A DNA stretch of 64,000 nucleotides from Paraspadella gotoi (Eukaryota > Animalia > Chaetognatha), in NCBI GenBank assembly GCA_051294375.1, contig CM119268.1, forward strand, positions 1,757,486 through 1,821,485, given 5' to 3'. Positions 44,414 through 47,541 of this stretch are shown one piece after another. Each line of letters opens with the position of its first letter. The stretch's first letter is position 1. A model generated the notes under the pieces. That model made no database searches. It was not told the DNA's origin and worked only from the letters and a program-made list of their open reading frames with translations. Made by a program: the position numbers and the translations under genes.

Positions 44414-47400
44414 AATCGGGTTTTTTTTTATTTCGTTCTTTCCTTTCTATTTTCTTTCCTTTTCTATTCTTTCTTTCCTTTCTTCCTTTTTATTCTTTCT
44501 TTCCTTTCTATTCTTTCTTTCCTTTCTATTATTTCTTTATTTTATTCTTATCTTTCTCTTTTTATTTCTTTTCTTTCTTCTTTCTATTCTTTCTTTACCT
44601 TTTCTATTCTTTCTTTCCTTTCTATCATTCTTTCTTTCCTTTCTATTCATTCTTTCTTTCCTTTCTATTTTTTCTTTATATTTAATATTTATTCTTTTCG
44701 TCTTTTTCTTTCTGTTTATAAATTTTTTTTTTTTCTAAAATTGATTTTTTTTTTTTTTTTTTTTTTTCAATCCAGATTTTCTTATGCGATTGCGACGATC
44801 CTATTGCTTTTTAAGAATTTTTTTTTTAATTTTTTTGTTGGAGAGCTTATGAGTCGTGATTCTTTTATTTCCCCCTCGCCTTATTTTTATTGTTTCAGGG
44901 GCCGTCGATGTCAACATTGTTCCGGTAAAGAATGGCGCGGAGAAAGGTTATGGATCCTTTTCGAGAGGTCAGACTTTTATTTCACAGGATACGATGAAGA
45001 AATAAATTATTTATTCTTCATATCTGAGGCTTTCGTTTCTAGAACCCAAGACGGAACCGACCGACAAATTTCCCTGGGCACCATCGGGAGGTCTGGTGGG
45101 TGCGAAAAGCCCCCTAGTGGAAAGAAATGAAAACAATGTACGCATCAACGGCGGAAACGATTCCGCAACGAAGTCTAATCGGCAAAAGGTGAGTTGGAAG
45201 GCAATTGTCTCACTCTCCATCTAGCATCTTTATTTAACTTTTTTTCTGACTTACAGAGCGGGCGCAGAGTAGTGGGTGACTCGCTCACAACGCTCTTGGA
45301 CGAATCCGACCGAATGATCGGTAGGAGGAACGACGGCGGACAATACGCCCGCAAAGAATCCGGGCGTGGCCCTCGTCAAAACGGAAGCGACGATCGAGGA
45401 ACAACGGTGAGTCCCAAGTCCCGATTCGCGGTTCCCTATAGAAGTTAAGTTAAATCGCATTTTATTCTTTTCTTCTTTCAGGATGGGACGTCTAGTCGGG
45501 AGCCGTCGGGAACCAAAACTAATTGGCGTCGTCGCTGGGGGCAAAACGTCAAACTTTACGATTCCATTTCAGATTTAGATGGAATTGATTCCACAGGTTT
45601 GAATCGCGACTCAATCCAAACAACTGATTTAAATAATCGGACGGAATTACATTTTTTTTTTCTTTTTTTGCTGTATTTAGAATCGGCGTCGAACCGTAAC
45701 GCTAATGCTCGACGGTTATCGAACGAGGGCCGCGACGCCGGGGACCACGTCGGCCGACCGCAGCAGCAGCAGCAAACGCAGCATCAACTACCACAACACA
45801 AGCGACAACAGCACCAGAGCGTCAATTCGGGAAACGGTCGTGTCGGCGGCAGAGGGCGTTGGGCGGTCGGCTTGCACGACGACAGCTTGGAGATGGCCTT
45901 CGGCAGCATGGGCAGTGGTCAAAGCACCGGCGACAGAGGGGAACAGGTGAAAGAAAGTCATCAAAGAATTTTATTAGTCGCAGGATGGCTTAATTGTTTG
46001 TTTTTTTTTTTGGTTTTTTTTTCGTTTTTTTTTTGCGTCCAACAGGGTCGGGAAAACATTTCGAAGTTGATCTCGGGTGGAGGGCAACGTTCGGGCCTCT
46101 CCGGGAACGGAACTGCCAAACTGCATTACATGAGCACCGCCAGATACGTTCCCGGTAAATGTGATCAGATTTATTTTTACCTTTTGGTATGTATGTACTA
46201 GAACAGCGGTAATATTGCTCGCAAACTCGGGTTGGTTTTAAAGGCGTAAACCCGTTGAAAGTTTCGTCGGACAATCGATCGCGTCGAGGGTCAAAGTCTT
46301 GCCCTCGGGATGTTGCGTCTCATCTCCCGGGCACCGACCCAGTTACTCAGCGGAAATACTTTCATCCCAATTCCCTAGTTTCTCTCCCCTCCAACAATAC
46401 GAATCCGATCGCGGTCAAGATTTCGGATGGGTTGAATGTCGATCCCAGCAGTTCTAGCACGATAAGAAAGTCCAAAGAAAAGTGGCAAGGTTTTTTTCTT
46501 CCCGATACGTTTCTTTTGCCCTTGATTGTGCAATGCATTAAAAAGTATATTTTGAGTTTTAAAAGCGTTTACTGCTATTGATAAATAATCACTATGTAGA
46601 AATCGGAAACGTGGTTTAAATTTCCCACAGATCCCTGTGATCCGAGAGATCTTTTCGATTCTTTTTCGATAAGCCTTAACCAAGAATTGCAAGGTTTTTT
46701 TTTTAGTTGTCCTCGTCTCTCAATTGAAGCTTTTTTTTTTTTTTTTGCACAATTTTTATCTATTCTTTGTTACGATTTCTTTAATTGTTTTAACCCATTT
46801 TCTTTCATCACTTTTCCCTCTCGCCCTTCAATTTCAGGTTCAACTTCGAGCGGCCAATACAAGCCGCTGGGCGCCGACTCGAGAAGCAGCGGCGTCGGGT
46901 CCGGATTCGGTTCCGGTTTGGGATCCGGAATTTCCAAAGCCTCTGGAGTCGGCACCGGCTGGGGCAGTCGAAATCTGCTAGGGGCTAAGGTTGAAATTAT
47001 TAGGGGGGTGGGGAACATCAGTTTAGCCGGAGACAAGTTTATGACTAACACCACAATTTATTAATAGGAACCCGCTTTGACGGTCAAAGGCGGCGCCTCT
47101 TCTGTCTCGGCGCCGGCCGGATCCACTTCCGGATTCGGCGGCTCGTATCGCCCTTCCGTCGCCAGTGCAGCCTCCGCGTCCGGTCGGACCGATTGGGCAG
47201 CCAAGTGAGGACATTGGACCTTATTTATTTAGTCCTTTTATTAAAAAAGGATGTAAAATTAAAATTGAAGAGATAGTTTAAGTGTAATGAGTTAAAAATA
47301 GAACACTTATGGGCAGTCCCTGAGCTTCGGATCATGCTGTAACACCAAGTTAAAGGCAGGTTAAGCGCCCCGTCCCTCTTAACTGCTAGGCGGCCACCGG

Positions 47401-47541
47401 GCTAGAACTCCGCTCCTTGGGGTTAGGAAGCGAATGACTTGCCTCCTGCGCCAATGGCCGCTGATGAACGGTTGGTGAATTTCAGTCCACCATAAAACCT
47501 TATAATCTTTTGCTGTTTTCAGGTATCTTCGCCAAACATGA
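37777..47541 (+). CDS. MAK: MAK/ICK(CILK1)-family ciliary Ser/Thr kinase, multi-exon
   Basis: [50 protein letters not shown] (TDY motif); C-terminal [13 protein letters not shown]. Confidence 0.92.
40650..42849 (-). CDS. Nested antisense type-I membrane protein with two Ig domains (inside a MAK intron; 3' end approximate)
   Basis: Signal exon 42738-42849. Ig1: [29 protein letters not shown]. Ig2: [33 protein letters not shown] segment [23 protein letters not shown] followed by HHKNKRK. Splice phases are consistent. Confidence 0.8.
44320..44700. repeat. (CT)n and (TTTC/TTCT)n low-complexity tract
   Basis: Seen directly. Confidence 0.85.
47313..47386 (-). ncRNA. P5-type twister ribozyme candidate B
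   Basis: Minus strand: GCAGU-uaag-AGG-GA-CGGG-gcgcu-UAA-CCU-GC-[P3 cuuuaac..guuacag]-c-AUGA-UCCG-AA-GC-UCAG-gg-ACUGC. Confidence 0.72.
47392..47459 (-). mobile_element. tRNA-derived (SINE-like) head directly upstream of twister B
   Basis: Minus strand: GGCCAT-TGGCGCAGGAGG (A-box-like)..GAGTTCTAGCCC (B-box-like)-GGTGGCC, with an acceptor-like stem GGCCA/TGGCC. Confidence 0.55.

Follow-up and report, generated by a model that had tools for sequence, protein, structure and literature searches.

Background

To our knowledge, twister ribozymes are widespread and a biological role has been documented only for variants that sit 5'-terminally in RTE retrotransposons, and the ribozyme-bearing SINEs that we know of carry hammerheads only. 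Cervera and de la Pena reportedly described, in 2020, metazoan non-LTR retrozymes with type I hammerheads. Excerpts of PMC8501958, in which the definition of the twister class is credited to Roth et al. 2014, place T-variant twisters at the 5' end of Perere-3, an RTE element of Schistosoma mansoni, and state that the P1 helix next to the cleavage site is typically at least 2 bp long in twisters and that cleavage in twisters without P1 is inefficient yet still occurs. Truncated twisters are also described at the 5' end of RTE elements in a portion of PMC7761336, where metazoan retrozymes appear as small, non-coding, ribozyme-bearing invertebrate repeats that are abundant in transcriptomes. Sm-alpha and Sj-alpha of Schistosoma are described in part of PMC6765202 as SINE-like retroposons with a hammerhead ribozyme.

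The element described here lies in the window, that is, in the whole stretch of 64,000 nucleotides of Paraspadella gotoi DNA that was analysed (Table 1), and we are confident, short of certainty, that it belongs to a SINE-like retroposon of high copy number, as a slightly worn copy lying antisense in an intron, and that this retroposon is made up of a leader, a tRNA-shaped head, a type-P5 twister-class domain and an AT-rich tail. Like Sm-alpha and Sj-alpha, as portrayed in that part of PMC6765202, it is a short, non-coding and highly repeated retroposon in which a promoter region of RNA polymerase III (Pol III) type, putative in the present case, is followed by a small self-cleaving ribozyme motif, here likewise predicted; unlike in Sm-alpha, the ribozyme class is twister and not hammerhead, the copies are mostly dispersed and not tandem, and the host is a different animal. 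With the twisters of Perere-3 and other RTE elements, going by the same excerpts, it shares a twister-class fold on a non-LTR retroelement and a weak or missing P1. However, those ribozymes are of type P1 and sit at the very 5' end, their copies have the cut site as their 5' end and the target-site duplication completes P1, whereas the focal domain is of type P5 and internal, behind a leader and a tRNA-like head, and the 5' ends of its family's copies lie 130 bases upstream of the predicted cut. The metazoan retrozymes, in the portion cited above, are likewise small non-coding ribozyme-bearing repeats of invertebrates, but they are tandem and form circular RNAs via hammerheads, whereas the focal family is dispersed, has a tRNA-like head and shows single tandem joints only. 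A search of the full-text literature found no paper joining a tRNA-type SINE with a twister.

Results

Table 1. Positions in the window of the focal element, its parts, its host intron and the sister unit.
Feature	Position	Strand	Basis or composition
5' leader, 33 bases	47462..47496	-	contig pile-up edge; alignment with the leader of the SPG7-intron unit
tRNA-shaped domain, 73 bases with the discriminator position counted	47389..47461	-	acceptor stem and T arm pairing
Type-P5 twister-like domain	47313..47386	-	pair table and descriptor test
Probable 3' part of the element, AT-rich with A-rich tail, extent tentative	47225..47312	-	continuation in other copies
P5 GCAGU / ACUGC	47386-47382 / 47317-47313	-	5/5 standard pairs
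P2 AGG / CCU	47377-47375 / 47360-47358	-	3/3 standard pairs in the focal copy
GA	47374-47373	-	core motif
T1 pseudoknot CGG / CCG	47372-47370 / 47330-47328	-	3/3 pairs
UAA	47363-47361	-	core motif
T2 pseudoknot GC / GC	47357-47356 / 47325-47324	-	2/2 pairs
P3 hairpin	47355-47337	-	7 bp in the family majority
P4 UGA / UCA, enclosing loop UCCGAAGC	loop 47331-47324	-	3/4 standard pairs
Predicted scissile bond U47363 / A47362	47362..47363	-	UAA position relative to P2 and the GA/T1 block
Intron of 318 bases, GT..AG, with the element antisense	47205..47522	+	RNA contig
Sister unit: leader, decayed tRNA-like head, type-P5 twister	51740..51925	+	Rfam, folding, pair table
Sister twister-like domain	51840-51922	+	part order as in the focal unit, other stem letters
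Sister P5	51840-51844 / 51918-51922	+	
Sister predicted cut	between 51867 and 51868	+	

Copy number, borders and host intron

DNA contigs resembling the unit over 47313-47494 at 80% likeness or more numbered 3187 in X1, 1057 in X5, 966 in X7 and 4521 in X3, and the summed contig depth on this interval reached 0.9-1.7 million compared to 35-86 on the single-copy flanks, which suggests copies in the order of 10^4 and not an exact number. Since contigs pile up by the thousands, and since their 5' flanks as read from the contigs are unrelated as in dispersed insertions, the sequence is not a single-copy gene but a slightly decayed copy of a SINE-like retroposon. The preliminary description had read the pairing of tRNA and twister as a recurring design rather than one recent repeat, and the latter part is not supported, because the focal unit belongs to a repeat that is very abundant in all four DNA runs. 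At 11 places the focal copy departs from the letter that most of the family has, which is consistent with an aged insertion. BLASTN of the element against the 64-kb window gave no further copies. The run X9 was taken as RNA on the strength of a spliced contig; 434 of its contigs bear the repeat, and copies are thus present in RNA of some kind. The evidence from all runs is in the form of assembled contigs, in which RNA ends are not visible. X10 and X11, which are from other species of the same RNA study, had no related contig, which is no proof of absence, and two variant-free 20-base words from the family each had 0 matches in public metagenome contigs.

The unit had been placed at 47313..47459, and the contigs confirm it there but show it to be wider. 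Its 5' start is at 47494-47496, where the pile-up has a sharp edge beyond which the other copies have AT-rich and unrelated flanks (agreement 0.41-0.55), and folding predicts a 7-bp hairpin at 47492-47473 within the leader. Past 47313 the other copies share a continuing sequence with loose ends (agreement 0.62-0.79), from which the AT-rich stretch that follows in the focal copy is probably the 3' part of the element, with an end at about 47225. This part of the focal copy is too diverged to be aligned with the other copies, and their 30-base consensus 3' of 47313 cannot be aligned base for base with it. The single candidate for a target-site duplication, and weak evidence, is a direct repeat of 7 bases, ATAAGGT, at 47503-47497 and 47224-47218. 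A run of five T at 47297-47293, 13 bases 3' of the ribozyme domain, was considered as a Pol III terminator within the unit and was rejected; the run appears private to the focal copy, because immediately 3' of 47313 the other copies read a different shared sequence.

A contig of the RNA run joins 47204 to 47523 at a depth of 375 with GT..AG ends, and the element lies antisense within the intron so defined. Thus, of the 'last MAK intron' to which the element had been assigned, the spliced intron stands, but its assignment to the kinase gene or to MAK is still putative. Kinase exons are found at 37678-38874 on the + strand. An intron-less DNAAF10/WDR92-like gene has at best 85% identity, to unnamed proteins, and about 70% to named proteins of molluscs, amphioxus and hemichordates.

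The tRNA-like head

The tRNA head reported earlier is there as a cloverleaf-like shape, but it is not called as a tRNA: ARAGORN found 0 tRNAs at the focal unit and the Rfam tRNA model gave no match to it. The acceptor stem, 47461-47455 with 47396-47390, has all seven pairs; the T arm has the loop GUUCUAG, with a T stem that has 3 of 5 pairs in the focal copy and 5 of 5 with the letters of the family majority; and the anticodon arm pairs poorly. By the usual consensus, this domain has box A-like and box B-like motifs as putative Pol III promoter elements, and the head likely carries a Pol III promoter. A tRNA-type box A usually lies less than 33 bases from the site where Pol III starts, and Pol III transcription from the head is not assured since the conserved 33-base leader exceeds this distance.

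The twister-like domain

All the helices and motifs that had been named in the preliminary description were found on the minus strand, together with a P3 hairpin missing from its list. The parts follow in the order P5, J5/2 UAAG, P2, GA, T1, vestigial P1, UAA, T2, P3, P4 and L4, with P2, P4 and an open P5 in type-P5 arrangement, and every twister core motif is present. The core letters, the two pseudoknots and the order P5-P2-(GA, T1)-P1-UAA-P2-T2-P3-P4/L4-P5 are thus those of the Rfam family Twister-P5 (RF02684), from which the domain differs in its vestigial P1 and in P2 and P4 of just 3 bp. The letters GA, UAA, GC and UCC-N-AAGC agree with the Twister-P5 consensus line, and the variable letter of GA-N-GG, at the first T1 position, is paired with the variable letter of the UCC-N-AAGC loop. 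Presumably the catalytic guanosine is among these conserved core letters. The predicted cut between 47363 and 47362 is drawn by analogy with the U-A site of twisters given in the excerpts of PMC8501958.

P3 of the focal copy has a U-C mismatch at 47353/47339, and about 99% of the contig depth at 47353 has another letter that gives G-C and a perfect 7-bp P3. The outer A-U pair of P2 is private to the focal copy; in about 99% of the contig depth the letter at 47358 gives A-C, and P2 therefore has just two G-C pairs (2/3) in most copies. P1 is nearly absent, with GGCGCU alone between T1 and UAA and room for at most one G-U pair over a four-base loop, and no P1 helix stands beside the cut site. 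The twister secondary structure of the focal copy has -11.7 kcal/mol compared to -23.2 for a competing minimum-energy fold, pseudoknots being counted in neither value. In the contig pile-up, 47316-47344, 47361-47371 and 47373-47386, which make up most of the core, have no listed variant that reaches 2% of the depth. This near-absence of variation may mean a young family instead of selection; uniformity is about equal in the tRNA-like part and in the ribozyme part.

Model searches and the descriptor test

A cmsearch on the minus strand, which had been proposed as a check, was negative for the focal copy: no twister match was obtained from Rfam at gathering, and the three twister models of Rfam gave no match when stretches of 1201, 191 and 85 bases were searched with E values of up to 10 allowed. 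RF02684 has a gathering score of 37.6 bits and matched the unit in the SPG7 intron, at 51850-51913, with 22.2 bits (E=0.0091 in a search of 221 bases), so that the sister unit is below gathering and the focal copy below any reporting level. A core descriptor, which was composed after both elements were known and has its fixed letters from the Twister-P5 consensus, matched exactly 2 places in the window, the focal and the SPG7-intron units, and none in 500 random 64-kb windows; an earlier and narrower descriptor had no match in 300 random windows. The loop word UCC-N-AAGC occurs at 9 places in the window and has a twister context at these 2 only.

Comparison with the sister unit

In the sister unit the minimum-energy fold is the twister secondary structure, all 24 proposed pairs are standard, P1 has 2 bp closed by UCGG, and both pseudoknots (T1 and T2, L1/L2 with the P4 loop) have all their pairs, as they do in the focal unit. 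When the two units were compared, 22 of the 24 proposed pairs were standard in both, nine pairs were altered on both sides, among them the first T1 pair (C-G in the focal unit and U-A in the sister unit), and none was altered on one side, whereas controls in which the 3' partners were shifted by 1-3 bases had only 2-4 pairs that were standard in both and 0-1 with two-sided changes. The earlier statement that structure is conserved over sequence is thereby upheld for the two units, and paired changes between the focal family and its sister have maintained the helices.

The two units also align over the leader, the tRNA-like head and the ribozyme, with 94 identical columns of 224. The union of tRNA and twister recurs, as had been noted; because of the homology over all three parts, the units are best read as diverged branches of one SINE lineage and not as independent inventions. 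Exons of an AAA protease are found at 52113-54700 on the + strand in the SPG7-like gene that hosts the sister unit.

Discussion

If the SINE reading of the element is right, transcripts of the master copies would fold into the twister and would be cut between the U and the A that correspond to 47363/47362. On its 5' side the cut would leave about 132 bases, made up of the leader, the tRNA-like head and the beginning of the ribozyme, and on its 3' side the body and tail. Genomic copies of full length would then have to derive from RNA that was uncut or whose two pieces were still base-paired across the cut; that the copied RNA was uncut is also suggested by copies that begin 130 bases upstream of the predicted cut, unlike those of RTE/Perere-3. 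The nearest model for a role of cleavage would be the hammerhead of the Sm-alpha SINE, which is thought to process Pol III transcripts. A stronger version is one that we hold to be possible but doubtful, namely that there are about ten thousand copies, that the master RNA joins a Pol III tRNA-like head to an active type-P5 twister, and that self-cleavage is obligatory and releases a small tRNA-shaped RNA that ends in a cyclic phosphate, and a head-less body.

It is also possible, though we would not expect it, that the twister-like domain of the SINE is catalytically dead or was never cleaved in this lineage, the fold being a structural module, e.g., for RNA stability or for recognition by a partner reverse transcriptase, or being preserved just because the family is young. 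The silence of the Rfam twister models, the vestigial P1, the P2 of 2-3 bp with its outer A-C pair in the family majority, the more stable competing fold and the ribozyme left uncut in genomic copies all fit such a domain. However, the core letters that the sister unit has in common with the Rfam consensus are all intact, among them GA, UAA and AAGC of the loop, the nine two-sided compensations include a T1 pseudoknot pair that is relevant only to the tertiary fold of a twister, and twisters lacking P1 still cleave inefficiently according to the excerpts of PMC8501958. These same compensations, the absence of the descriptor from random windows and the score of a homologous unit on Twister-P5 make a resemblance by chance hardly credible, even though Rfam is silent on the focal copy.

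Two further readings concern the element as a whole. A joint of 47494 to 47313, which places two 182-base units head to tail, is seen in one DNA contig of X1 and one contig of the RNA run X9, and the retrozymes in the cited portion of PMC7761336 and the Sm-alpha arrays in that of PMC6765202 are precedents for a retrozyme- or satellite-like element, in which the twister would trim tandem multimers to single units, which might then form circles. We consider this improbable, because the joint is found in one contig per run among thousands, the 5' flanks are mostly unrelated while the 3' continuation is shared, which fits dispersed insertions, the focal copy is solitary in its intron, and the edges of the unit at 47494 and 47313 lie away from the cut site. 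More improbable still is a non-coding RNA gene of the host, selected at this locus, with a tRNA-like RNA freed by its own ribozyme; the perfect acceptor stem would suit such a gene and the five-T run could stop Pol III, but the sequence is one among thousands of copies, its 11 departures from the majority leave it with a mismatch in P3 and a weaker T stem, the T run is apparently not shared by other copies, and the two other species of the same RNA study yielded no related contig. The reading as a slightly decayed copy of a SINE-like retroposon is therefore the one that we prefer.

A SINE of such abundance, with a tRNA-like head followed by an internal twister, would be a new setting for this ribozyme class, and its thousands of natural variants would provide material for studies of covariation and activity. 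It raises the question of how an element spreads if its own RNA cuts off its promoter. Since the curated models miss the focal lineage entirely, twisters in animal repeats are probably under-counted. If the twister is indeed active and its cleavage obligatory, this would be, after Sm-alpha, a second and independent case in which a SINE has joined with a self-cleaving ribozyme, and it would give a natural role to internal twisters of animals.

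Architecture and genomic setting of the repeat unit

The tRNA-shaped head followed by a twister-like fold, which the preliminary description had reported, was confirmed, and all the parts described are present on the minus strand (table). The unit has four parts: a leader, the tRNA-shaped domain, the twister-like fold, which has the type-P5 order of parts and lies 3 bases beyond that domain, and an AT-rich 3' end. Within the P4 loop CCG pairs with T1 and GC pairs with T2. The P3 hairpin, the leader and 2 extra acceptor-stem bases are additions to what had been described.

Parts of the focal unit and other features of the window
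Feature	Sequence	Position	Strand	Remark
Leader		47494-47462	-	5'-most part
tRNA-shaped domain		47461-47389	-	73 bases; acceptor stem 7/7 pairs; T arm loop GUUCUAG
P5, 5' strand	GCAGU	47386-47382	-	
Junction	UAAG	47381-47378	-	
P2, 3' strand	AGG	47377-47375	-	
Core	GA	47374-47373	-	
T1	CGG	47372-47370	-	
P1 position	GGCGCU	47369-47364	-	
Predicted cut site	UAA	47363-47361	-	
P2, 5' strand	CCU	47360-47358	-	
T2	GC	47357-47356	-	
P3 hairpin		47355-47337	-	
P4 around its loop	UGA / UCA around UCCGAAGC	47334-47321	-	
P5, 3' strand	ACUGC	47317-47313	-	
DNAAF10/WDR92-like gene		24776-25849	+	single exon
Long TPR protein gene		26386-31042	+	presumably IFT139/TTC21B-like
IFT20		35706-36155	+	Pfam PF14931, E=7e-30
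Protein kinase exons		37678-38874	+	
Runs of N (assembly gaps)		10775-11569, 12190-12433, 12527-12551, 43458-43467		beside long GA/CT microsatellites

The intronic antisense placement was borne out by a contig of X9, a public run treated as RNA, in which 47204 is followed directly by 47523 and the skipped stretch has GT..AG at its ends. The element thus lies antisense in, and occupies most of, an intron of 318 bases in a transcript of the + strand. This intron may belong to the gene with the protein kinase exons, the putative MAK of the preliminary description. The repeat was found in 434 X9 contigs and copies are therefore present in RNA; two further species sampled alongside X9 yielded no repeat-bearing contigs, which is no proof of absence. 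The window also carries a cluster of cilium-related, intron-poor genes.

A 9-base leader word, AACCGUUCA (47473-47465, minus strand), is the exact complement of UGAACGGUU, which sits just 3' of 47313 in the continuation common to other copies, and if leader and tail paired in a full-length RNA, the tRNA-like head and the twister could come to lie within a three-way junction. In the sister unit on the + strand, in the first intron of an SPG7-like AAA-protease gene (the SPG7 unit), leader and tail are complementary over 6 bases of other sequence, CUCCCG (about 51746-51751) with CGGGAG (about 51926-51931). The focal leader (47480-47469) shares the 12-base word UUCACCAACCGU with the head of the SPG7 unit, where it falls in the anticodon-arm region (51799-51810); the focal leader may derive from a partly duplicated head.

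The focal unit is a high-copy repeat

When assembled contigs of public runs were aligned to 47150-47650 at 80% likeness or more, 3187, 1057, 966 and 4521 contigs from four DNA runs fell on 47313-47494. Depth was single-copy in the flanks, about 35 for X1 and about 86 for X3 (both DNA runs), and peaked in the repeat at 0.9 and 1.7 million; this summed depth is no copy number in itself but suggests some ten thousand copies as an order of magnitude. At its 5' end the unit stops sharply at 47494-47496, and further out other copies are unrelated and AT-rich (agreement 0.41-0.55). Past 47313 other copies run on with common sequence (agreement 0.62-0.79), which in the focal copy is either missing or erased by divergence. 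The 7-base direct repeat ATAAGGT (47503-47497 and 47224-47218) hints at the bounds of a 272-base insertion with an A-rich tail at its end.

The focal copy differs from the family majority at 11 positions, 3 of which weaken the T stem. The letter at 47353 disrupts a P3 pair, which reads G-C in about 99% of depth, and the difference at 47358 makes the A-U pair of the P2 first described, where the family majority is A-C. At a 2% threshold no variants were listed across most of the ribozyme core, but this uniformity may simply reflect a young family, since the tRNA-like part varies hardly more.

Two 182-base units stand head to tail in a single DNA contig and in a single RNA-run contig, and the joint (47494 to 47313) indicates that at least some copies are tandem and end precisely at the last base of P5. 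In two X9 contigs the match to the repeat breaks off at 47360, two to three bases beyond the predicted cut, and gives way to different sequence that again resembles P2, GCC and a hairpin. On the 5' side of about 47360 the summed DNA depth is roughly twice that on the 3' side. There may be subfamilies with a common head and 5' half of the ribozyme.

Curated models, chance matches and ribozyme activity

Rfam at gathering thresholds gave no match anywhere in the window, and ARAGORN found no tRNAs there. With the cut-off relaxed to E=10, the focal region, searched as stretches of 1201, 191 and 85 bases, matched neither a twister nor a tRNA, so that by curated tests the focal copy is no recognised twister and its head no recognised tRNA. 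The SPG7 unit scored 22.2 bits against Twister-P5 (RF02684; E=0.0091, 221-base search), below the gathering score of 37.6. A core descriptor whose fixed letters agree with the Twister-P5 consensus (P2 of 3-4 bp, GA-N-GG, at most 25 bases, UAA, the second P2 strand, GC, at most 45 bases, and P4 of 3 bp around UCC-N'-AAGC, N pairing with N') matched two places in all when both strands of the window were scanned, the focal unit and the SPG7 unit (51850-51912). It matched none of 500 random windows of the same dinucleotide make-up, and a narrower version none of 300; the test was not blind because the descriptor was composed after the elements had been seen.

The tRNA-like head, with candidate box A-like and box B-like motifs, would carry a Pol III promoter, and the twister is predicted to cleave the RNA of master copies at the U-A bond. 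What speaks against activity is that P1 is vestigial, that P2 has only 2-3 bp, that the focal copy has no Rfam match, and that in this copy another fold is favoured over the twister helices (-23.2 kcal/mol versus -11.7, with pseudoknots uncounted). Cleavage is inefficient without P1, according to PMC8501958. Copies in the genome begin 130 bases upstream of the predicted cut (47363/47362), which implies that the copied RNA was uncut or held together. We consider the chances that the family's ribozyme is active to be about evenly balanced, and those of the focal copy's own ribozyme to be lower.

Among the systems compared, the Sm-alpha/Sj-alpha SINE, which carries a hammerhead, comes nearest in architecture (PMC6765202), and the T-variant twisters found at the 5' ends of RTE elements come nearest in ribozyme class (PMC8501958; PMC7761336); unlike the copies studied here, Perere-3 copies begin at the cut (PMC8501958). 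A full-text search of the literature found no paper on a tRNA-type SINE with a twister.

Two diverged units of one lineage

BLASTN found no similarity between the focal and SPG7 units; MAFFT could align them from the leader through the tRNA-like head to the ribozyme, 94 of 224 columns being identical, and both have CCAUUGGC at the head start and UGAAAYUCA in the leader-hairpin loop. When the ribozymes were aligned on their invariant blocks, all 24 tabulated pairs were standard in the SPG7 unit and 22 in the focal copy. Nine pairs (8 with family-majority letters) had changed on both sides and none on one side only, whereas slid controls gave 2-4 pairs standard in both units and 0-1 two-sided changes. 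The compensated pairs sit in P5, P2, P3 and P4 and include the first T1 pseudoknot pair (C-G versus U-A). For the SPG7 unit, energy minimisation gave exactly the twister secondary structure.

These paired substitutions, which maintain the twister fold between the units, support the earlier proposal that structure is conserved over sequence. Its other half, that this is not one recent repeat, was not supported, the focal unit being a high-copy repeat and both units diverged members of one lineage. The focal element is probably an aged SINE copy that bears a twister. The two units are diverged branches of one SINE lineage in which paired substitutions have kept the twister fold, and the combination of tRNA and twister recurs because it was inherited and copied.
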